Origin: a virus
Strand: one strand, 5' to 3'
Virus record (IMG/VR): IMGVR_UViG_3300014202_001521
Location: 66,931 to 130,930 of that record
Length of the DNA stretch: 64,000 nucleotides
The position numbers were made by a program, and so were the translations under genes. The notes under the pieces are model-generated. The model was not told where the DNA came from. It saw only the letters and a program-made list of their open reading frames with translations, and did no database searches. How positions within the stretch are numbered: the first letter of the stretch is position 1; each line of letters opens with the position of its first letter. Of this stretch, positions 6,908 to 43,071 are shown piece by piece.

Positions 6908-7742
6908 GGAATTATATATTACTTCAATATCATTATTATAGAAAGAACTAATGACGCCAAAGAAGCTAGTGTGGACATGACAGTAAGAACGGTTATGACC
7001 TTGGTGAAATAAGCGAGGTCATAAGTGTATTTGAGCATTTTCTCGTTTAGTTTTTCATTCTCTCTTCGCACTAACTCTTCGCAGAAAAAGACTGGCCCTA
7101 GATTCGCAGACTCAGCCAGCTTGTTGAACTCTTCAATAAGCTCCTCATCAGACAGTTGTTTTAGTCTGTAATAGTCGTGCGGCATCAATTAGTTATGCAG
7201 GCGAAGATAATTGCAGCTTGGGCAAAATTTTCCATTTCTATAAGAAGGATGCTGAGCCAAACCTGTAAAGCAACGTGGACATTTATTGATTGACCAGATG
7301 AAGAACCACATTATTAATACAAATACAATTACTGCTAAACACAGCAATACTGCGTACATATTAGTCCTTTGGCCAAACCCCTGATATATAACTACCTAAT
7401 AACAACACAAATACAATTGCGGCAATAGCTCCTGCGGCAGTGCCGTACCAAGCTGATTTTAACGAAATGTTAGAATGTGGATAGACAAATATCATCCAAA
7501 ATAACCACAATGTAGATGCAAAAGTGCTAACGAACGAAAAAGTGAATTTTATAGTTTCCATTGGGTTCTTTCATTGAAATTTATCTAACTTTTTAAATTG
7601 TATTGCATCCGAAAAGTGTGTCCAATAAGTCATGTTGTTGGCTTTTGGATTATTTATCTGCCACATAATAGATGTTAGGCTGACAAATATTAAAGCACAG
7701 GCTAAAAATGCTAAAAGCAGTTTTTTCATATTGCACCTGTAG

Positions 7743-7825
7743 TAGCCGAGGCGGGATTCGAACCCGCAAGCCCTAACGGGCGAGGGATTTTAAGTCCCTT
7801 GTGTATACCGTTCCACCACTCGGCC
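7743..7825 (-). tRNA. tRNA-Leu(UAA), long variable arm
   Basis: GGCCGAG/CTCGGCT acceptor, loop CT-TAA-AA, GGTTCGAATCC, A73. Confidence 0.95.
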
Positions 7826-17552: not shown

Positions 17553-17675
17553 TGGCCAAGGCTGGAATTGAACCAACTCCTACGGAACAGAGGTAAGGTG
17601 CTTACTATGATGTGGGCATTTTCAGCCTCACGACACCTTACTTTTTCCGCCGCTCTGCCGTTGAGCTACTTAGCC
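17553..17675 (-). ncRNA. 123-nt tRNA-like gene with ~50-nt structured expansion of the anticodon arm
   Basis: Acceptor GGCTAAG/CTTGGCC plus A73, D arm GCTC-AACGGCA-GAGC, T arm GTTGG-TTCAATT-CCAGC; stem GCGGA/TCCGT encloses GTAAGGTG/CACCTTAC and an inner hairpin. Confidence 0.8.
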
Positions 17676-19889: not shown

Positions 19890-22014
19890 ATTAACCTCTT
19901 TCAAAAGAAAGCCCTACAAAGTAAATATAGCGTTAGCACTAACATTGCCAACGCTACTTTTGCTGCGTACCTACTGTATAATCCTATTAGCACACCATAC
20001 AGTGCATAACAAATCATGAACAAATGTGCTAAGAATGCTACCATGCGCCGCGTTTTTCGTCTTCTGTTCTATAGTCCACCGATGGATATTCCCGAAGGAC
20101 TTTGCCACAATTCTGACATATCAAACAGTCGTGGCTAAAGCCGCCACTGCATTTATATTCTTTTACTGGAAAACAGTTATTGCAACAACCCCAATTAGGT
20201 CTGTCCCAAAACTGCGGTAGTTGTTCCATTTGGCTCCTTTATAACAACAATCGGTTCTCGGCAAGTGTTAAGCTTCTTTTTAAGCTCGTCTGCTTTCTCA
20301 TTCAACTCTTTATATAATTTTTCACTGCACATCAACCACTTCCACTCTTTGGTGTCTGCATCTTGCACGGGCACCATATAACGCTTCGGTCCCAATTGCT
20401 CACAGGTTAAGCCCATGACAATCCCTTACCTTTTACGAGTAGATCATACAGGTTATTCACGAAAATGTCGAAATTCCCGTCCTTGCCAGGAATACCAACG
20501 TGAGTATGCATTTTACCCTTTGTGATGGTCGCTGTCCAGCCACCCCAATCTTCCTCAAAACCGATCTTTTCGCCCTTGTTAGCAAGTTCTATGATCTTCT
20601 CCAGAATGACTTTGCACTTCTCTTCAATTGTCACTTGGACACCGTGTTTCTCTTTAGCTAACAAATATTCCGTGTCCGTACAGCCAGGGTCACGAATTAA
20701 ACAGACACAGCTAATTTGGGGAGGTTCGCTCCAAGTTATGCTAATCTTGGGAACATCAGGACACGTCACGCTAATCGTGAAGGGCGGTAAGTCCTTGCTT
20801 ATTGGCGTTCCACAAATTATTGGTGGAAAGTTAATGTCACAAGGCGGAAAGCTTATAAACTGTGGAATGTTTGGTGTCGTGAACGCAAGAGGCGGAAAAC
20901 AAATATCATGTGTTCCGCTGGGTATATTGCCAACATCTTCTAAATTAATCTTGCTTGGTATTTCCATCACATTTCCTTATAAATTGAACTATATCTTCCA
21001 CTATATGATTATTTTTTCTATCGTCGTCAATAGTTATACTAATCTCTTTGGAATCCTTGTCTAGTATGACGTAGATCATCGTCTCGTCATTTGCTTCAGA
21101 CCAACCTTCTTCATCCCATGCAATCTTAGCAGCTTCGTCTTTGTATAGGAATAAGTCGATGCTGCCGTTTGAAGAAAAAAGCTCATGCACCATATTCGGC
21201 CAATGGTCTTGAACCAATAATCTAATTAGATTTTCAGCTATTGGGATTGAGCTTGTAAGTAGCGTATCAGAACCATGAATTTCCATTCTATATATTAGTT
21301 ATTTCTTCTCTCGTATTGAAAGTTCTTTTTCAAAATCTTCAATGCACCTGACTATCTTTTGCATTCGTTCTTTGTAGACTCTGGCTTCTTCCGCGTTATT
21401 GATTTCAACAGTAACAGAAGACCCAGCATTCGCATGTCGTATTTTCAACTTCACCGTGTTATTACTGCTTACATAAGTAGTAATTTCTTCCTGTGGTGCC
21501 GTGCAACCAATCAGAACGAACAGGCTAAGGGAAAGCAAAATGCCAGTAAGTTTTTTCATGATTATACTCCTATAGGTTATGCAAAAACTTATTACTCGTA
21601 TATGTTGGACAAGGCATGGCGTCGATCTTTTTACCGATGAAATTAACAATTATTTGGATGAAGGCTGGAATATCTCTGCTCTTAACATCGAGAAAAAGGG
21701 TCTAAGGTTTGTGTGCTTTGCAATATTAGTTGATCTTCCACTAGAGCCTGGTCTTGAAATAGCGGGCGAATAGCATCCTTCATTAACTCCCAGGTTTCAT
21801 AGTCGGGCACACAACCACCGTCAATAAACATTGCGGCAATTGCTGGGTCTTTATATTTAAACCCACCAATGGTGAAGCTCCACTCTTTGTTATCGAAACA
21901 CTGCCAGCATCGGATTTTGCGGCCTTCTACCCATAAATCCAATGAAGAAACAGGCTCTCGATTTACAATTGTTGTTGATCTACAGATGACTGTGACGTGC
22001 ATCAAAGACTCCAG

Positions 22015-22098
22015 TGGCCGAGGCGAGACTTGAACTCGCACGCCCTTACGGGCACTAGCTCCTAAGGCTAGCGTGTATGCCAATTTCACCACTCGGCC
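22015..22098 (-). tRNA. tRNA-Leu(UAG), long variable arm
   Basis: GGCCGAG/CTCGGCC, CTAGC-CT-TAG-GA-GCTAG, A73. Confidence 0.95.
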
Positions 22099-33496: not shown

Positions 33497-33580
33497 TAGC
33501 CAAGGTGGGAGTCGAACCCACACACCCTTAACGGGTACTGGATTTTGAGTCCAGCGCGTCTGCCATTCCGCCACTTGGCC
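33497..33580 (-). tRNA. tRNA-Leu(CAA), long variable arm
   Basis: GGCCAAG/CTTGGCT, CTGGA-CT-CAA-AA-TCCAG, A73. Confidence 0.95.
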
Positions 33581-35485: not shown

Positions 35486-36172
35486 TTATTTATGGTTATG
35501 AATAGCGAAATAATGGTAGAACCCATATTCTCTTGGCATTATTTTAGGTTTAACCCCTGTTTTCCATAAAGCATAAACTAAACAAGCTTGGCTACAAGGC
35601 CAAGCTGCTTTTGTTTCGTTTATATCAGTCCACCATGTTTCCGCTAGTTCATTTGAGAATTTATGCATGTTGTAAACAATGAATCCGTCCCAATAAAGAC
35701 CCAGCTTAGTCGGCATCCCTTCTTTTTGATACTTTTCAATTCTGCTTGTCAGGGCTTCACGACCAGTTTCTACATATTTACCTATGCTAAGAACGTGGGT
35801 GAGTTCTTCGATAGGGCAATGTCTGTCACCGTGAACACTTAAAGCAAGATTGTAGTCAAAAATGTTCGACTCAACAATTTCTTTAACGAAATTCTTATTA
35901 ATGATTTGATCTTGAGCGTCAAGGTGTATGACTAAATCATAACCTTCTAGTTTCTTACACTTGTTAGGAAATACTCTGTAGGCTTTAGCCTGCATACACC
36001 AAGGCCATCTAACCAAGTGAGGTGGTCGAGGATCGGTTAAAGGCATTAGGTTTTCTTCGTCATGAGTGTAATAAACGAAATCGCAAGGATATGTTTGTGG
36101 CTCATGAGTGTCTTGGATTTCTGGTCTATCCCAGCCACCAAGGTTAGCAGAATAAATACATACAGATGTCAT
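35486..36172 (-). CDS. Glycosyltransferase-like (DUF616-like)
   Basis: Likely start MTSVCIYSANLGGWD; HLDA, H.DR.C..EE, Q..L.YALW. Confidence 0.65.
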   Translation of the reverse strand: MTSVCIYSANLGGWDRPEIQDTHEPQTYPCDFVYYTHDEENLMPLTDPRPPHLVRWPWCMQAKAYRVFPNKCKKLEGYDLVIHLDAQDQIINKNFVKEIVESNIFDYNLALSVHGDRHCPIEELTHVLSIGKYVETGREALTSRIEKYQKEGMPTKLGLYWDGFIVYNMHKFSNELAETWWTDINETKAAWPCSQACLVYALWKTGVKPKIMPREYGFYHYFAIHNHK

Positions 36173-36184
36173 ACTGTATATAGG

Positions 36185-36268
36185 TGCGTAGGGCAGGATT
36201 CGAACCTGCGAAGAACTAAGTTCGCCAGATTTACAGTCTGGTGCAATTGGCCACTCTGCCACCTACGC
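36185..36268 (-). tRNA. tRNA-Tyr(GUA)
   Basis: GCGTAGG/CCTACGC, CCAGA-CT-GTA-AA-TCTGG, long V arm, A73. Confidence 0.95.
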
Positions 36269-36462
36269 ATAGAGCATTTGTTCTTGTATTTTAATCCATG
36301 CTAAAGTTTCGATTTCAAGTTCTTTGATAAGAAAATAACTTCTTGGAAACACCTCTTCGATTTCTTCGATACTATCCGCTTGGACATAACGGACAGGGCC
36401 GTAAAGATCATCGTCGTCTTCGCTTTCATATCTATAAATTGCATATATCATTGTATTATAAT

Positions 36463-36534
36463 CCTCGATTCTGTGTTCGTCAGGGCTTTCACCCTGGCAT
36501 GGCCCTGGCCTTTCGGCTGTTCCATGACTAACAG
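36463..36534 (-). ncRNA. Candidate structured RNA 3' of tRNA-Leu(CAG)
   Basis: Nested stems CTGT/ACAG, GTC/GAC, ATGG/CCAT, GCC-GAAA-GGC, AGGG-TGAAAG-CCCT. Confidence 0.45.
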
Positions 36535-36609
36535 TGACCACCGTGGGATTCGAACCCACACATTCCACGTTCTGAGCGTGGCGACTCCTGCCAATTGGTC
36601 TAGGTGGCC
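36535..36609 (-). tRNA. tRNA-Leu(CAG) with short (5-nt) variable loop
   Basis: GGCCACC/GGTGGTC, CCACG-CT-CAG-AA-CGTGG, V=AATGT, A73. Confidence 0.9.
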
Positions 36610-36822
36610 CTATTTTTCTTCATCGAATCACCCGTTGCATTACGATGATCCTTAATCTGCTTGTGATAATCTGGAATATCATCGTCGGCATGACAAGTAG
36701 TGCTTACACTAATTACTTTCCAACCATCATCCCACACACCTTCGCTGTCACGCAGTTTGAGGAACTTATTCAAGACAGCAAATTCCTCTGGAATATAACT
36801 AACTTGTTCTGAGTACGATGTT

Positions 36823-37536
36823 TCAGAATGCTTTTTCCGCATCTTGCATTGTCTGTAATAAACTGTCTTGCTCATATATTCTCAATTCAATCTTCCCGTT
36901 ATCTACTACTAGGTATGTTGGCGAAGATTCAGTCCAACAGCCACTATTATAATAATCTTTATCCTCTTCCGCAAGATGAGTGTGCCCACAACACACAAAA
37001 TCGCATCTTTCTTTTTCTTTATGCTTACGGGCCAACCCTTTAATTCGGTCAGCACACCGCAGGAACGTTTTGGAGTTGTGTTTGGCTAATTTAGCCAGGT
37101 AAAAACTCCCATCTAGTTTCTGTAGGAACCAGTATATCACATCTCCAAACCATGTTAGGATTGGATGTTCACTCAAGAAATCATCGTATATGTCTCCGTG
37201 GAAACATAAAACCTGTTTCCCACCTGATTCGAAAATAAATTCGTCAGTATAATGAACCCCTATCAAATGGGCGATGTATTGTGCTGGTCCATGAGCATCA
37301 TGGTTGCCCCTAATCCAAATTACTTCAATGGTGTCGGAAACTTTCCTTATAGTAGATAGGATTTTCCAGTGCCACTTGTGTAATCGGGAGTCGAAATTCT
37401 CGAAAACGTCACCGTTCAGGATCAGTTTCTTTGTTTCTATTTCTTTGTTTTGTATTTTTTCTAGGAAATTAACCAGCGACTTTGCTTGACAGTTATCAGC
37501 ACCAATATGTAAATCGGAAATAATGATTGCATCCAT
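36823..37536 (-). CDS. Calcineurin-like metallophosphoesterase (LpxH/YbbF-like)
   Basis: ISDLHIG, LNGDVFE, RGNHD, HGD, CGHTH. Confidence 0.85.
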   Translation of the reverse strand: MDAIIISDLHIGADNCQAKSLVNFLEKIQNKEIETKKLILNGDVFENFDSRLHKWHWKILSTIRKVSDTIEVIWIRGNHDAHGPAQYIAHLIGVHYTDEFIFESGGKQVLCFHGDIYDDFLSEHPILTWFGDVIYWFLQKLDGSFYLAKLAKHNSKTFLRCADRIKGLARKHKEKERCDFVCCGHTHLAEEDKDYYNSGCWTESSPTYLVVDNGKIELRIYEQDSLLQTMQDAEKAF

Positions 37537-37594
37537 ACTAAGTATTTACATTATTAGTCCCTTCGTATATGTTAATTTTCAGAGAAGATTTCAG

Positions 37595-37675
37595 TGGCCA
37601 AGGTGGGAGTCGAACCCACAATCCCGAAGGAACAAGTTTCTAAAACTTGCGCGTATACCGTTTCGCCACAAGGCC
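37595..37675 (-). tRNA. tRNA-Leu(UAG), long V arm, two acceptor-stem mismatches
   Basis: GGCCTTG/CTTGGCC (two T.T), CAAGT-TT-TAG-AA-ACTTG. Confidence 0.8.
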
Positions 37676-37784
37676 ATAAAGATCGACTAGCAGGTGTCAC
37701 GCCTTTTGATACCGCCGATCAGAATATCCGCCGCTCATTCTGGTTGTCATAGCTAGATGAACTTAAACCTCTTTGGGTAGCCAC

Positions 37785-38276
37785 TTACATATCCATATGT
37801 AAAGGAGGATCGCTCACCGCTCGCTCGACCAGCCCTTCGTTCGCGGAACTTGCGTTTTCGCCCCTGCAATGCTCACTGTCCGCTACGACCGTTCCTTTTA
37901 AATCTCTTTTTTGGGAAGGACTTAACCTTCTAATTTTGGTGTCAGAAGTTAAACAAATTGAAGCTCCATCATTCCAGATTTTCGAATTTGTCTCAAAAGC
38001 TTCAACAATTTTTCTTTCTTCTAGCTCCGCATTACCAAAAACTGCAAATTTTCCACCAAAACTACCAGCTACTATAAATGGGTTATTTCGGTCTATTTTA
38101 ACTTTTGTGCGTCTTATTTCCAAGTGAGCAAAGTCGAGTGTGGTCCAAACGTACTTCCACGGCTGGTCATTAAGCCGAGTGTACTTTTTAGGCCATTTTA
38201 TAACTTCAAGCCCACAGAAATGCCACTCCTGTAGTGGCATTTTTAAGAGCCAATAGTCCAATTCTTCGAAAAACAT
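37785..38276 (-). CDS. Hypothetical protein
   Basis: Likely start MFFEELDY just 3' of tRNA-Ser; the track's extension runs through the tRNA. Confidence 0.5.
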   Translation of the reverse strand: MFFEELDYWLLKMPLQEWHFCGLEVIKWPKKYTRLNDQPWKYVWTTLDFAHLEIRRTKVKIDRNNPFIVAGSFGGKFAVFGNAELEERKIVEAFETNSKIWNDGASICLTSDTKIRRLSPSQKRDLKGTVVADSEHCRGENASSANEGLVERAVSDPPLHMDM

Positions 38277-38279
38277 AAG

Positions 38280-38366
38280 CGGAGGGTGTAGGATTTGAAC
38301 CCACGGTCCCCTTGCGGGGACTCTAGTTTTCAAGACTAGCGCAATCGGCCACTCTGCCAACCCTCC
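38280..38366 (-). tRNA. tRNA-Ser(UGA)
   Basis: GGAGGGT/ACCCTCC, CTAGT-CT-TGA-AA-ACTAG, long V arm, G73. Confidence 0.95.
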
Positions 38367-38401
38367 AGCAATTTCACACCCCGTTAGACATATATAACAG
38401 T

Positions 38402-38992
38402 ATGCTAAACTTTAGGGGGTGGTTTATGGAGACTTTCAGCGTACCAAAGTCGCATATAAAAGTCAAGTTGCCTTCTGCTAAACAACCCAAAAACTTTTCC
38501 TGTGGGGCTTCCGCTTTAAGGGCTATCGCAGTCCATTTTAACGTCGGTCCTAACAACGAACAATTCTATATAGACAAGTGTAACACAACTTATAAAGATG
38601 GTACACACCCAAAAGATATTATTCGTGTTGCCCGTGAACTTGGCCTAACCGTAAGGTCTAAGTCCAAAATGTCCATCAAAGACCTACATGAGTATCTTGA
38701 TGACGGTATTCCTGTTGTCTGCTCCATCCAAGCATGGGGCGATCAGAAAAAATATCCCGACACCGACCACAGCGGGCATTATGTCGTCGCCATCGGCTAC
38801 ACCAATGACAAAATCTATTTCATGGACCCGTCAATTAAAGGCCACCGTGGATTCCTGCCTAATGACGAATTTATCGAACGCTGGCACGATGAAGAAGCTG
38901 ATGGCACCAAACTCAATCGCTATGGAATCGCCATCTGGAATCCCACAGCAATTAAAAAACAACATTTGAACAAAGTCAAAAAGATTCAATGA
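38402..38992 (+). CDS. Peptidase C39-like cysteine protease
   Basis: QPKNFSCGA, GHYVVAIGY, YFMDP. Confidence 0.85.
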   Translation: MLNFRGWFMETFSVPKSHIKVKLPSAKQPKNFSCGASALRAIAVHFNVGPNNEQFYIDKCNTTYKDGTHPKDIIRVARELGLTVRSKSKMSIKDLHEYLDDGIPVVCSIQAWGDQKKYPDTDHSGHYVVAIGYTNDKIYFMDPSIKGHRGFLPNDEFIERWHDEEADGTKLNRYGIAIWNPTAIKKQHLNKVKKIQ

Positions 38993-39749
38993 TAGTGTTC
39001 GGGCTTACGTCGATCCGAACGCTTTAACTTCATGATGGCCGACCTATAGCAATCCAACCAATATTCGTGTTGGAAGTTGTCAGGATTCCAGCCACTGAGA
39101 ATCTTTTTGATGTAATCGTCCCACTTCATCTTGTTCTTGGCACAATTATCATCCAAAACTCGTTCTTCAAAAACCGTTGTTAGTTCATCAAGGATATCAA
39201 CTAGGGGTATTTTCTTGCTCATTTTTATTTCCAATATAATTACCGTCGTCGTCCCAATCGTCATCGTTTCTTGGCTTGACTATCATCAATACTAATTTGT
39301 CTCCGCACCACACAGGAGCGCGAAGCGTCGTCCATTTTTCATGTGTGTATTTTGTGTTCAATTGAAGGTATAAGTCTTCTAGGGAATCTGCACAAAGCAC
39401 TTCTGAATCTATGCGTTTTCCTAGTTCTTTCAATTCTTTAAGTGTAATTGGTTCCCAACTCATTACCAACAATCCTCTTCATATTCATTGCGCTGTGAAG
39501 CATAGTAGTCTTCCCATGCTTCCTTTTCGTATTTCGCTTCTAGCTCTCTATCTCTGATTTCTTGCAGTGATGGATAGCCATTGGCTTTCCTGTCCCTGCC
39601 AGGGTTAATCAGTTTTGAAAGCTGTCGTTCTGGATCGGTTGCATGAGCGTCCCCGTAGTAGAACTCATATTTGCATTCTGGACAATAATCTCTGCGGGGG
39701 TCATTACCTAAATTCGGATGGTCGCAAAAATCCATTATTAAACTCCTAG

Positions 39750-39824
39750 TAGCACGGAAGGGATTCGAACCCTTACTGCCCACGTTTTAAATGTGGTGAC
39801 TCCTGCCAGTTGGTCTACCGTGCC
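39750..39824 (-). tRNA. tRNA-Leu(UAA) with short variable loop
   Basis: GGCACGG/CCGTGCT, CCACA-TT-TAA-AA-CGTGG, V=GCAGT, A73. Confidence 0.85.
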
Positions 39825-40019
39825 ATAAGTGGCCCTAGTCTTAACTCAGTATTACTAAATCGTTGCCCATATTGTCAGGTTTTGTATCCTTTTTAGTCGC
39901 GTCGTTAATTGCCTGGAAAAATCCTTGCATCTGCTCGTTAATATGTTCAACAGCTTCAATCTCTTCCTGACTCCAGCCAGCATCTTGATACATTTTCCGC
40001 AATTCGTCTTTTGTCATAG

Positions 40020-40107
40020 TGGCCTTGGCGGGATTCGAACCCGCACCCTCTTACGAGGACAACGTTCTCAACGTTGCGCGTTTACCTGTATGTTACACCA
40101 CAAGGCC
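40020..40107 (-). tRNA. tRNA-Leu(GAG), long V arm, enlarged D loop
   Basis: GGCCTTG/CAAGGCC, CAACG-TT-GAG-AA-CGTTG, A73. Confidence 0.9.
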
Positions 40108-40111
40108 ATAG

Positions 40112-40192
40112 TGTGGTAGGTGGGACTTGAACCCACACCCCTTTCGGGACACGCCCCTCAAGCGTGCGCGGCTGCCATTACGCCACTACCAC
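40112..40192 (-). tRNA. tRNA-Leu(GAG), long V arm
   Basis: GTGGTAG/CTACCAC, CACGC-TT-GAG-GG-GCGTG, A73. Confidence 0.92.
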
Positions 40193-40690
40193 ATGTTTTT
40201 CTTCGCTTCGTCAAAAAATATCTTCGAGCATTCAGACAGGTGCGTTTTTGTATATCTTTCTCCTGTCTTTATCCAGAAGAAATTGTAAATTTCTCTAATG
40301 GCTTGCACCAAGCCATCCTCGGTCAACTCACCTCTGTAAGCTGCCAAGCGAAAACTTGGTCAGCCATATTCAGGGCATTGTAGTCCTTGAGTTAAAGGAA
40401 GCCTATAGCCATCCCTCCAAGCCCAACATCGCGGATTGTTCCATTCCTGAATCCGCTTTCCAACTACAATTAGTTCTGTAGGTGTCATTTAACCTCCATA
40501 GGAAAAGGTTATATATCGTATGCTTCCCATTTCTTGTTATATTCTGCTCGCCATACTGAGTATCGTTGTTTTGGACCACGATATCCTAGTCGCTCTTTAT
40601 TACGGATTTTGAATCCACATTCTGTGACCATTTTCCTGCGAACGAACTTATAGAACCCAGGATGGTCTAATATTCCATATTTATTCATAG

Positions 40691-40765
40691 TAGCACGGGT
40701 GGGATTCGAACCCACACTGTCCACGTTCTAAGCGTGGCGACTCCTGCCAATTGGTCTACCGTGCC
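40691..40765 (-). tRNA. tRNA-Leu(UAG) with short variable loop
   Basis: GGCACGG/CCGTGCT, CCACG-CT-TAG-AA-CGTGG, V=ACAGT, A73. Confidence 0.9.
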
Positions 40766-41631
40766 GTTCTTCTTCTAACTGCTTGCGTAATTTCGCAATT
40801 CTTAACCGCAAGCAATCCACACAAGTCACCTGTTCATCGACATAACTAAGCACTACTTGATCGTGGCCACTAATACCATACATTTTACCGCAAAGAGCCA
40901 TCAAGTCACTGCCCATGCCAGCATGAACTAATCCGTCCATATTCTATACCCCGTTGGTTTACCGTGCCGATCATACTTCGTCCAACCTACCTGCCTACAA
41001 AACCAATTCCAAACCTTTTTTCTCCAAGGACGCGAGAAATCCATAGGATAACCGTCTGCGTCCAAAGTTGCTCTATACCTTTCTGTCTCACGGTTATGTT
41101 CTGCTAGTTCTTCTGGATGCGTTTCCCAATATTCTCTTGACCGCTTTATATTCTCTGACTCGGCTTCCACCATTACTTTGACACACTCGCTGTCACGATT
41201 CTTTTCACATTCAGGACAGAAAGTAAAACTAAGGTGGCCATCCCACCAGGACCAACTTTCGCCTTCTAGTTTAACTCTCTTGCATAAATCGCAATTCATT
41301 GTCCATATATCTTCCATTAATACCTCATGTCACTCTTGTCGCCGCCCTTATTCAAACGAGCAAGTATTGCTTCTGGAAATTCCTTGGTAGGTTTACCCCA
41401 CCATTTATTCATTTTGCGATCCCATATTTGCCAGCCCTTGGGATTAGTTCTTACGCAATATCTAGCGTTTCTTTTGCCCATAATCAAAGTTGCGATATTT
41501 GATCCTATAGTATACCTTTCTAGCCTTCTCTTCCAGGTAATTGTATCCTTTAATTACCCAATACATCGCTAAAAGAGAATAGAGATAGAATATACTACGC
41601 CACGTCATTCGTTCATATCTGTTTTCCATAG

Positions 41632-41715
41632 CGGTAGGTGCGAGAGTTGAACTCACAAAACCTTTCGGTTTGTCCCGCTTCAAACGGGGTGGGCCTGCCA
41701 ATGCCCAAACCTACC
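41632..41715 (-). tRNA. tRNA-Ser(UGA)
   Basis: GGTAGGT/ACCTACC, loop TT-TGA-AG, long V arm with GAAA, G73. Confidence 0.88.
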
Positions 41716-41718
41716 AAG

Positions 41719-41805
41719 CGGAAGGTGTCGGAGTCGAACCGACAAGCCCCTTTCGGGACTACTCGTTTTCGAAACGAGCCGACTTGCCAATGTGCAAAAC
41801 CTTCC
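41719..41805 (-). tRNA. tRNA-Ser(CGA)
   Basis: GGAAGGT/ACCTTCC, CTCGT-TT-CGA-AA-ACGAG, G73. Confidence 0.9.
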
Positions 41806-41808
41806 AAG

Positions 41809-41889
41809 TAGTCTAGGTGGGAGTCGAACCCACAATCCCGAAGGAACGAATTTTTAAGACTCGCGCGTATACCGTTTCGCCACAAGACC
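41809..41889 (-). tRNA. tRNA-Leu(UAA), long V arm
   Basis: GGTCTTG/CTAGACT (one T.T), CGAGT-CT-TAA-AA-ATTCG, A73. Confidence 0.88.
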
Positions 41890-41895
41890 ATGAAG

Positions 41896-41982
41896 CGGAA
41901 AGTGTGGGAGTCGAACCCACAAGCCCCTTTCGGGACTACTTAGTTTCCAACCAAGCTGACTTGCCAATGTGCAAAACTTTCC
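41896..41982 (-). tRNA. tRNA-Ser(GGA)
   Basis: GGAAAGT/ACTTTCC, CTTGG-TT-GGA-AA-CTAAG, G73. Confidence 0.9.
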
Positions 41983-42144
41983 GTTACTTATCCTTACAAA
42001 AATACCATATTACAAATCCTATAGCAACAAAAACTAATGTAAAAGCCGCTGCCTGCAAAAACATTTCTGGTGTAATCGGCGGATTATCATAATGGTTCTT
42101 ACCAGGCCCGCTTAATGCCTGATTTATAATTACAGTATCCATAG

Positions 42145-42219
42145 TAGCCACCGTGGGATTCGAACCCACACTGTTACCCTTTTGAGAGGTACGACTCCTA
42201 CCAGTTGGTCTAGGTGGCC
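42145..42219 (-). tRNA. tRNA-Leu(CAA) with short variable loop
   Basis: GGCCACC/GGTGGCT, TACCT-CT-CAA-AA-GGGTA, V=ACAGT, A73. Confidence 0.9.
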
Positions 42220-42224
42220 ATATA

Positions 42225-42308
42225 AGCGACTGAATAAAGCTGAAAGTCACCCTTATTCACTTAAATTGAGGGCACTCCGAATTTACGCAGACTACATCAA
42301 TCATCGCT
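42225..42308 (-). ncRNA. Candidate structured spacer RNA (possible pseudoknot)
   Basis: Ends pair (AGCGAT/GTCGCT); hairpin GCCCT/AGGGT whose loop TGAATA is complementary to downstream TATTCA. Confidence 0.4.
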
Positions 42309-42310
42309 AG

Positions 42311-42390
42311 TGTAGCGTGCAGGAGTCGAACCTGCAAGGCTTTCGCGTCAAGGTTACAGCTTGGTGGGCCTGCCAATGCCCAAACGCTAC
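42311..42390 (-). tRNA. tRNA-Tyr(GUA)
   Basis: GTAGCGT/ACGCTAC, loop CT-GTA-AC, V arm with GAAA, A73. Confidence 0.9.
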
Positions 42391-42397
42391 ATAAGAG

Positions 42398-42480
42398 TGG
42401 GTGTATGAGGATTCGAACCCCTTAGCACTTAGTACAATCGGGTTACAGCCGATTTCGCTTCCCACAGACGTAGTACACCC
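42398..42480 (-). tRNA. tRNA-Tyr(GUA), atypical D and T arms
   Basis: GGGTGTA/TACACCC, ATCGG-CT-GTA-AC-CCGAT, weak D stem, A.A at T-stem base. Confidence 0.75.
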
Positions 42481-42481
42481 A

Positions 42482-42657
42482 ATTTGGTAGCAGGCTTAAA
42501 GTGCTACTCGGACTATGACCTTGTTTTTCAGACGGAATTTCACCGCCAGGCCAGCCGTCCGCACCCTATTGCTTGCGTGCGAACCGCCTTACTACCAAAT
42601 AACTCGTATCCCTATTCCGTTAGACGAGTCCACTAACGGCTGAGCGGATTGCTCCAC
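42482..42657 (-). ncRNA. Candidate novel structured ncRNA (~175 nt): GNRA hairpin, H-type pseudoknot and multibranch domain
   Basis: GTGGA-GCAA-TCCGC; CCGTTAG/CTAACGG with loop GACTCGT pairing ACGAGTT; 14-bp closing helix ATTTGGTAG..AGGC/GCCT..CTACCAAAT enclosing GTTCGCAC/GTGCGGAC and a GG-TGAAA-TT-CC T-loop. Confidence 0.65.
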
Positions 42658-42667
42658 TTGGGTTTAG

Positions 42668-42756
42668 CGGAAGGTGAGGGAGTCGAACCCTCAGCACCCG
42701 TGAGGGTGCGCTAGCTTAGCAGGCTAGTGTGACGAACCGATAGTCACCTACCTTCC
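42668..42756 (-). tRNA. tRNA-Ser(GCU), first gene of the array
   Basis: GGAAGGT/ACCTTCC, CTAGC-CT-GCT-AA-GCTAG, long V arm, G73. Confidence 0.95.
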
Positions 42757-42769
42757 AAGGCAAACCGAA

Positions 42770-42782
42770 TTTTCAAAGAACA
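42770..42782 (-). promoter_or_regulatory. rrn-type boxA antitermination site
   Basis: TGTTCTTTGAAAA, 13 nt before the first tRNA and just after the attenuator terminator. Confidence 0.65.
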
Positions 42783-42814
42783 GAAAACTTTGGTACAATT
42801 GCAATTGCGGGTAT

Positions 42815-42860
42815 AAAAAAAAAGAAACCCGCCGTGACCTTTCAGCCACGGCGGGTTTCT
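42815..42860 (-). terminator. Attenuator intrinsic terminator of the tRNA array
   Basis: AGAAACCCGCCGTG-GCT-GAAA-GGT-CACGGCGGGTTTCT followed by a further T8; perfect 14-bp stem. Confidence 0.92.
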
Positions 42861-42879
42861 ACCCCTGTTTCCGCTAAGC

Positions 42880-42963
42880 CTATTCGGTCCATCTTCCTGC
42901 GCTCGACAACGAGAGCGATAATGAATAATAACTGGACAGTAGGTTAACGGAGAAAGTATGCAC
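42880..42963 (-). CDS. Attenuator leader peptide MHTFSVNLLSSYYSLSLSLSSAGRWTE
   Basis: SD AAGGA, GTG start; codons 8-21 CTA CTG TCC AGT TAT TAT TCA TTA TCG CTC TCG TTG TCG AGC; TAG 19 nt before the terminator stem; below ORF-track cutoff. Confidence 0.88.
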   Translation of the reverse strand: MHTFSVNLLSSYYSLSLSLSSAGRWTE

Positions 42964-43071
42964 CTTAAAGTTTCCTTTTAGTTAATATATGCAGCAAGCC
43001 GCAAATATTTTCGTGAAAATCATCAACTTCCCTTATCTTACGCCGAAAATTCGGTTTGTCAAGAAGATTTT

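Follow-up and report, generated by a model that had tools for sequence, protein, structure and literature searches.

Short-arm (type I) leucine tRNA genes with four anticodons in a phage Leu/Ser/Tyr tRNA cluster

Four genes of 75 nucleotides (nt) in a phage tRNA cluster are type I tRNALeu, that is, leucine tRNAs without the long variable arm, of a kind already described and annotated in phages. They are located in a 64,000-nt window (positions 66,931–130,930 of IMGVR_UViG_3300014202_001521; bases 9376–73375 of a linear, 103,371-bp IMG/VR virus record with completeness estimated by CheckV at 21%) and carry the anticodons CAG, UAA, UAG and CAA. Judged from sequence, the four very probably serve as functional elongators; the type I tRNALeu family to which they belong is shared by actinomycete chromosomes, bacterial tRNA arrays and a large number of phages. 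New here are four further members of a family for which biochemistry comes from one bacterium and annotation already exists in many phages. The family is far wider than the single experimental paper suggests, reaching hundreds of phage contigs, phages of Proteobacteria and Cyanobacteria, and several bacterial phyla.

Structure of the four short-arm genes

Genes were called with two independent finders, ARAGORN and the Rfam model RF00005 (gathering score 29 bits). Both recover the four 75-nt genes (Table 1), which an earlier note on this DNA had placed at the same coordinates with the same anticodons. ARAGORN spans are 36534–36609, 39749–39824, 40690–40765 and 42144–42219; Rfam scores are 47.3–56.6 bits (E 1.6e-9 to 5.6e-7). 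Each gene has a 7-bp acceptor stem, U8 and A9, the D arm GACCAAYUGGYAGGAGUC (positions 8–27 read UAGACCAAYUGGYAGGAGUC), a 5-bp anticodon stem, a 7-nt anticodon loop including U33, a 5-nt variable loop with U48 as its final base, and a 5-bp T stem (GUGGG/AAGGG plus UUCGAAU). A14, A15 and A73 are present in all four, and CCA is encoded in none. The common D arm, the variable loops ending in U, and A15, U48 and A73, all noted earlier, can thus be read directly from the sequence.

Canonical class II tRNALeu is defined by a long variable arm that exceeds 10 nt and contains a stem; in the four genes this region measures 5 nt. The nucleotides of arm-independent tRNALeu recognition (A73, U8-A14, A15-N48, G18G19/U55C56 and U54-A58) are present in 4/4 genes, and all four have the five variable-loop nucleotides, including nucleotide 48, that Streptomyces coelicolor leucyl-tRNA synthetase (LeuRS) needs at the least for good activity. 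Minimum free energy folds recover the acceptor, anticodon and T arms together with the 5-nt variable loop (3/4 arms). The D stem is supported by covariation in the family.

The genes are paralogous, as had been proposed, with pairwise identities of 67–87% and shared stem modules. The acceptor stem GGCCACC is common to CAG and CAA, GGCACGG is common to UAA and UAG, and the anticodon stem CCACG/CGUGG is common to CAG, UAG and UAA. Such sharing is the pattern expected if duplication, anticodon change and stem exchange had taken place inside the lineage. The same four short-arm anticodons, likewise in a Leu/Ser/Tyr cluster, occur in a related IMG/VR contig of 38.8 kb (L021), its CAA gene matching the counterpart in the record at 100% identity and its UAG gene at 97.3%.

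Breadth and conservation of the family

A survey of short-arm Leu tRNAs in phage databases, proposed in the earlier note, was run. An exact match to the D-arm string is present in 33 IMG/VR contigs and also in Streptomyces phages of the BE cluster, whose 75–76-nt genes are already annotated as tRNA-Leu. A relaxed D-arm motif, TAGNCCAAYNGGYAGGAGNC, searched in viral and bacterial collections, is present at no fewer than 119 IMG/VR loci and in at least 120 bacterial contigs; bacteria among the matches listed are Micromonospora, Nocardiopsis, Actinoplanes, Streptomyces, Gemmataceae, Acidobacteriota, Verrucomicrobiota and others. BLAST against cultured phages returns 170 records, from phages of Mycobacterium (76), Streptomyces (64), Erwinia (14), and, for the remainder, from cyanophages and phages of Rhodococcus, Gordonia and Pseudomonas. 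Members checked individually are those of Microcystis phage Mwe-JY26, Synechococcus phage S-CRM01 and Erwinia phage Rouille. Precedent, which the note had supposed for bacterial tRNA arrays, is much broader and takes in phages of Streptomyces, Mycobacterium, Erwinia, Microcystis and Synechococcus, with annotated tRNA-Leu genes of 75–78 nt, and a mycobacterial cluster. At 22 loci the relaxed motif is not accompanied by a tRNA call; most of these are chance matches in coding DNA, positions 11 and 24 being non-pairing. Phage T5 is ruled out as a precedent: its annotated tRNA-Leu(UAG) is 85 nt long and has the long arm.

Members of the family are uniform in size and identity. Among ARAGORN tRNAs bearing the motif, from phage and bacterial contigs together, 257/258 have Leu anticodons (CAA, UAA, CAG, UAG, GAG or AAG); all 258 are 75–80 nt long and none has a long arm. 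A73 is present in 227/230 unique family sequences. In a gap-free alignment of 136 sequences and 75 columns, 98.3% of cells are compatible with cloverleaf pairing, as against 62.8% in shuffles and 37–44% in slid controls. On the same alignment 18/20 pairs show changes on both sides; the D-stem pair 11-24 is C-G in 85 sequences, A-U in 25 and U-A in 25. Positions conserved at about 100% in 217 family members are U8, A14, A15, G18, G19, G47, U48, U54, U55, C56, A58 and A73; among the same 217, 136 have ACAGU as their variable loop. Actinomycete chromosomal members have G37 (UUUAGGU). The D-loop core scores best against other short Leu tRNAs, then against array tRNAGln, and not against long-arm tRNALeu; the score varied with the stem flanks and so does not bear on the ancestry of the scaffold.

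Short forms are specific to Leu. On the same contigs tRNASer is long in 138 cases and short in one, and tRNATyr is long in 29 and short in one; in Erwinia phage Rouille all three Leu tRNAs are short and the Ser tRNA is 93 nt. The complete chromosome of Micromonospora sp. SH-82, with 48 tRNAs, has long-arm tRNALeu for UAA, CAG and GAG and short-arm tRNALeu for UAG and CAA. Since the last two isoacceptors exist there in the short form only, they must be working tRNAs in that organism. Most phage arrays have no Leu tRNA other than the short form.

At loci that carry short Leu tRNAs, anticodon sets were counted in the retrieved flanking sequence only. Four or five distinct short-arm anticodons are present at 18/139 IMG/VR and 10/102 bacterial loci, so the earlier view that a set of four is unusual finds no support. 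Less frequent is an anticodon present in both architectures (6/139 viral loci); the record has three such anticodons (UAA, UAG and CAA).

Two further kinds of short Leu sequence were seen. The first is a second short-arm Leu scaffold that combines U8-G9 with a D arm resembling that of class II (UGAUGCAAUCUUGGUAGACAUC is one instance) and is located at 2781–2936 of contig L267 (G004) and also in L013, L025 and L027; in some phage contigs it sits beside the main family. The other is a 5' half of type I tRNALeu with the GGCACGG acceptor (L032:13774–13810, and L034), which stops after C32-U33-U34 and continues into an open reading frame (ORF). Interruption by an anticodon-loop group I intron was considered for these halves and rejected, as Rfam finds no intron there.

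Cultured phages supply the nearest annotated counterparts. The 75–78-nt tRNA-Leu genes of Streptomyces phages Tomas and LilMartin, Mycobacterium cluster C phages, Mwe-JY26, S-CRM01 and Rouille have the same or a close D arm, an ACAGU-type variable loop, A73 and Leu anticodons. They differ from those of the record in that the arrays are mostly mixed, with all isotypes and without long-arm duplicates, and many encode CCA. In bacteria, a short variable loop was reported for tRNALeu(TAG) of a mycobacterial tRNA cluster (Behra et al. 2019, PMC6582537). There, in M. mucogenicum and M. phocaicum, a short-loop cluster tRNA likewise accompanies a chromosomal long-loop isoacceptor; the cluster, however, is bacterial and horizontally acquired, and one anticodon is reported. 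Canonical class II tRNALeu shares with the type I genes A73, U8-A14, A15-U48, the AAYUGGYAG-type D loop, the placement of G18G19 and the anticodons, whereas the variable stem-loop of 10–17 nt is absent from type I. Compared with the long-arm Leu copies of the record, which have G9, the type I genes have A9, and their D arm is longer by one nucleotide on its 3' side.

Function, origin and competing explanations

Bacterial LeuRS ignores the anticodon and the long arm and reads A73, U8-A14, A15-U48 and the G18G19/U55C56 elbow. Seryl-tRNA synthetase (SerRS) and bacterial tyrosyl-tRNA synthetase (TyrRS) require the arm. Because LeuRS can dispense with it and the other two cannot, tRNALeu would be the only class II tRNA able to lose the arm. 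The four genes are likely to be transcribed from the minus strand jointly with the Leu/Ser/Tyr cluster and its small ORFs, and RNase P, together with an enzyme that processes 3' ends, would excise their products. CCA would be added post-transcriptionally, because none is encoded; 3' trimming and CCA addition could be performed by a host enzyme or by an unsampled phage enzyme. Host LeuRS would leucylate the short-arm tRNAs, and UUR and CUN codons would be read. Short- and long-arm copies together supply the phage with all Leu anticodons, and three of these come in both architectures. The set presumably originated inside the phage lineage by duplication, anticodon change and stem exchange.

The experimental precedent is the type I tRNALeu(CAA) of S. 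coelicolor, with the variable loop A44C45A46G47C48 (Fan, Huang, Ji and Wang 2019, NAR 47:6369, PMC6614811). The single LeuRS of that organism charges and edits both types alike, with kcat/Km of 6.25 s−1 μM−1 for type I CAA and 14.2 for long-arm UAA; for good activity the variable loop must have five nucleotides or more, nucleotide 48 being one of them, and U8-A14 matters in recognition (PMC6614811). According to the same paper, almost all bacterial tRNALeu are type II and the Streptomyces LeuRS is the only prokaryotic LeuRS charging both types. The genes of the record resemble this tRNA, compared by its published description, in the Leu anticodon, the 5-nt variable loop (ACAGC there), A73 and the presence of long-arm tRNALeu alongside, and the same D-arm motif is found in Streptomyces and Micromonospora chromosomes. 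They differ in being phage-borne, in forming a four-anticodon set with duplicate long-arm copies, in having U48 instead of C48 and in encoding no CCA. The proposal in the earlier note, that these are class-I-shaped Leu tRNAs whose leucylation is plausible, gains support from the elbow nucleotides and A73, conserved at about 100%, from the restriction to Leu anticodons and from charging in S. coelicolor (PMC6614811). The breadth of a family so restricted implies that many bacterial LeuRS accept arm-less tRNALeu.

Several observations weigh against ordinary elongator function. Bacterial tRNALeu(NAG) usually has G37; the CUN readers at 36535–36609 and 40691–40765 have A37, in the loops CUCAGAA and CUUAGAA, and 1-methylguanosine at this position (m1G37) would therefore be absent. 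Simple supply does not account for three anticodons being present in both architectures. Neither LeuRS (PF00133) nor a CCA-adding enzyme (PF01743) was found in the record, which is about 21% complete. A look-up of RNA data for window positions 36000–43000 listed no run that contains the region. The LeuRS of E. coli and of S. purpurogeneiscleroticus fail to charge the S. coelicolor type I tRNA (PMC6614811), and charging thus depends on the host enzyme. U48 is present in nearly all phage members, so that the A15-U48 pair, part of the E. coli recognition set, is kept; this base, in place of the C48 of the tRNA rejected by E. coli LeuRS, may explain use in Erwinia phages.

Mischarging or recoding, in which another synthetase would charge the short-arm scaffold and Leu codons would be read in part as another amino acid, is extremely improbable. 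The scaffold does depart from canonical tRNALeu, its D loop is similar to that of array tRNAGln, and A73 is common to several other isoacceptor families. Most other A73 synthetases, however, read the anticodon, and pair 3-70 is only CG, GC, UA or AU, the absence of G3:U70 ruling out alanyl-tRNA synthetase. If purifying selection acts on a tRNA charged with Leu, the family should be confined to Leu anticodons as strictly as is seen, since an anticodon change would misplace Leu; for this reason the mischarged alternative raised in the earlier note is judged unlikely. Micromonospora has no other UAG and CAA tRNAs, and S. coelicolor LeuRS charges and edits both types alike (PMC6614811). Nor do the genes belong with swapped-identity tRNAs of the tRNAProX kind: anticodons and identity nucleotides are both those of Leu, with no G3:U70, no G73 and no long arm. 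Very unlikely, too, is a non-translating role, as decoys or sponges for a tRNA-binding protein, as processing punctuation for small ORFs or as decaying pseudogenes. Two small ORFs begin two bases past a tRNA 3' end, so that excision would shape mRNAs as well, and in the relatives L032 and L034 such a tRNA is represented by a truncated 5' half. Against this, the stems, the anticodon loop with U33 and the elbow nucleotides are intact in 4/4 genes, the CAA copy is unchanged and the UAG copy nearly so in the related contig, compensatory changes occur elsewhere in the family, and decoys have no need of confinement to Leu anticodons.

A counter-defence function, along the lines of the nuclease evasion raised in the earlier note, would be additive to elongator function and not a replacement for it; it is plausible in principle but unlikely. 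Short-arm copies would escape host effectors that target class II tRNAs through their long variable arm, and Leu decoding would persist once host and long-arm phage tRNALeu were inactivated, a route open to Leu only because SerRS and TyrRS need the arm. Effectors of this specificity exist: MenT3 requires tRNASer to have its long variable loop, and tRNAMet becomes a good substrate once this loop is grafted onto it (PMC11541572); the abortive-infection toxin AbiEii appears to favour class II tRNAs; human SLFN11 and SLFN14 cut type II tRNAs. In the record, UAA, UAG and CAA are duplicated across architectures, which few phage loci do for any anticodon, and Ser(UGA) and Tyr(GUA) likewise occur in structurally divergent copies; in the family, two or more different short-arm Leu scaffolds (U8-A9 with AGGAG; U8-G9) suggest repeated arm loss. 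Yet no effector, host or phenotype is tied to the record phage, the short form alone serves as Leu tRNA in most phage arrays, and in actinomycetes it is an ordinary isoacceptor of the chromosome, so that the architecture can be understood without recourse to defence. MenT3, moreover, favours Ser over Leu even among long-arm tRNAs (PMC11541572). Neither a proposal nor a test of the idea was found in the literature searched. The stronger version, in which arm loss would be an adaptive escape and both architectures of UAA, UAG and CAA an insurance in a Leu/Ser/Tyr cassette, is quite doubtful; nucleotidyltransferases of the AbiEii/MenT type and Schlafen-like RNases would be candidate effectors. 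A related published case is van den Berg et al. 2023 (eLife, PMC10264068), where phage tRNAs are likewise proposed to work under host tRNA attack, the title and abstract ascribing the escape to anticodon-loop changes against anticodon nucleases; here the whole arm is lost. The breadth of the short-arm family raises the question of why phages so often shed the arm of the sole class II tRNA whose synthetase can do without it.

Cluster neighbours and record context

ARAGORN finds 18 tRNAs in the whole record, all of them in the window and on the minus strand. Rfam alone adds two, a long-arm Leu(GAG) and an insert-bearing tRNA (17553–17675). By the two finders combined, the 103-kb record has 20 tRNAs, every one of them for Leu, Ser or Tyr. 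Long-arm UAA, UAG and CAA versions near the short-arm genes, described in the earlier note, were found again by ARAGORN; neither a long-arm CAG nor a short-arm GAG was found in the record by ARAGORN or Rfam.

Table 1. Coordinates of the short-arm tRNALeu genes and associated features in the window
Feature	Position	Strand	Characteristics	Evidence
Type I tRNALeu(CAG)	36535..36609	-	Variable loop AAUGU; A73; no encoded CCA	ARAGORN; Rfam 52.9 bits; sequence; fold
Type I tRNALeu(UAA)	39750..39824	-	Variable loop GCAGU; A73	ARAGORN; Rfam 47.3 bits; fold
Type I tRNALeu(UAG)	40691..40765	-	Variable loop ACAGU; A73	ARAGORN; Rfam 56.6 bits; fold
Type I tRNALeu(CAA)	42145..42219	-	Variable loop ACAGU; A73	ARAGORN; Rfam 49.5 bits; fold
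Long-arm (class II) tRNALeu(UAA)	41809..41889	-	Anticodon as in short-arm gene at 39750	ARAGORN; Rfam
Long-arm tRNALeu(UAA), further copy	7742-7825	-		ARAGORN
Long-arm tRNALeu(UAG)	37595..37675	-	Anticodon as in short-arm gene at 40691	ARAGORN; Rfam
Long-arm tRNALeu(UAG), further copy	22014-22098	-		ARAGORN
Long-arm tRNALeu(CAA)	33497..33580	-	Anticodon as in short-arm gene at 42145	ARAGORN; Rfam
Long-arm tRNALeu(GAG), two copies	40112-40192; 40020-40107	-		Second copy by Rfam only
Remainder of cluster head: Ser(GCU), Tyr (two), Ser(GGA), Ser(CGA), Ser(UGA)	41631..42756	-	Long-arm	ARAGORN
Terminator-like hairpin	42823..42860	-	17 bp, GC-rich, then nine T	Directly upstream of first tRNA of array

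The all-Leu/Ser/Tyr content was considered as a genome-wide, class II-only repertoire and thus as a sign of class II-directed attack; this was dropped. The record is about 21% complete, and the classes are clustered apart in LR756511.1, so that the content is a property of the cluster and not of the repertoire. LR756511.1 is a partly related 595-kb phage (CTP synthase 76% amino acid identity; tRNA cluster 77% nucleotide identity) with 60 tRNAs, of which 11 of class II lie at ~434–437 kb and ~45 of 70–76 nt at 176–291 kb; ~150 kb separate the class II from the class I tRNAs. Type I tRNALeu was not found in LR756511.1, which points to acquisition of the four short-arm genes in the lineage of the record phage. 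The CTP synthase of the record has a close match only in LR756511.1, and its tail-sheath-like protein has no match among cultured phages. A T4-type RNA ligase (PF09511) was not found in the record; the same search was also silent in every control genome, which makes this negative uninformative.

Clusters of Leu/Ser/Tyr, sometimes with Phe, also occur in LR756511.1 and three IMG/VR contigs, amounting to 4/92 viral loci with at least 6 tRNAs; contigs concerned in this comparison are L003, L008, L021 and L032. The window tRNAs span 7742–42756. The hairpin upstream of the array probably ends the preceding transcription unit.

The second Leu(GAG), 88 nt long and missed by ARAGORN, has an enlarged D loop, an Rfam score of 51.6 bits and a cloverleaf fold with z = −3.9. 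The tRNA at 17553–17675 is 123 nt long (Rfam 47.6 bits) with an insertion of ~50 nt; earlier it had been interpreted as having an anticodon arm that is enlarged and ends in a loop of Phe type. Ser(UGA) and Tyr(GUA) at 41631–41715 and 42310–42390 have a common unusual D arm, UUUGGGCAUUGGCAGGCCCAC, and more canonical copies are present at 38279–38366 (Ser(UGA)) and 36183–36268 (Tyr); structurally divergent duplicates thus exist for Ser and Tyr as for Leu. ORFs of 59 and 52 amino acids have their ATG at 40686–40688 and 42140–42142, two bases past A73 of the short-arm UAG and CAA genes, in the context A73-CU-AUG; tRNA 3' processing would yield nearly leaderless mRNAs. Also inside the tRNA cluster are a calcineurin-like metallophosphoesterase (36823–37536; Pfam E 6e-12) and, on the opposite strand, a C39-like papain-fold peptidase (38402–38992; E 1.5e-14).

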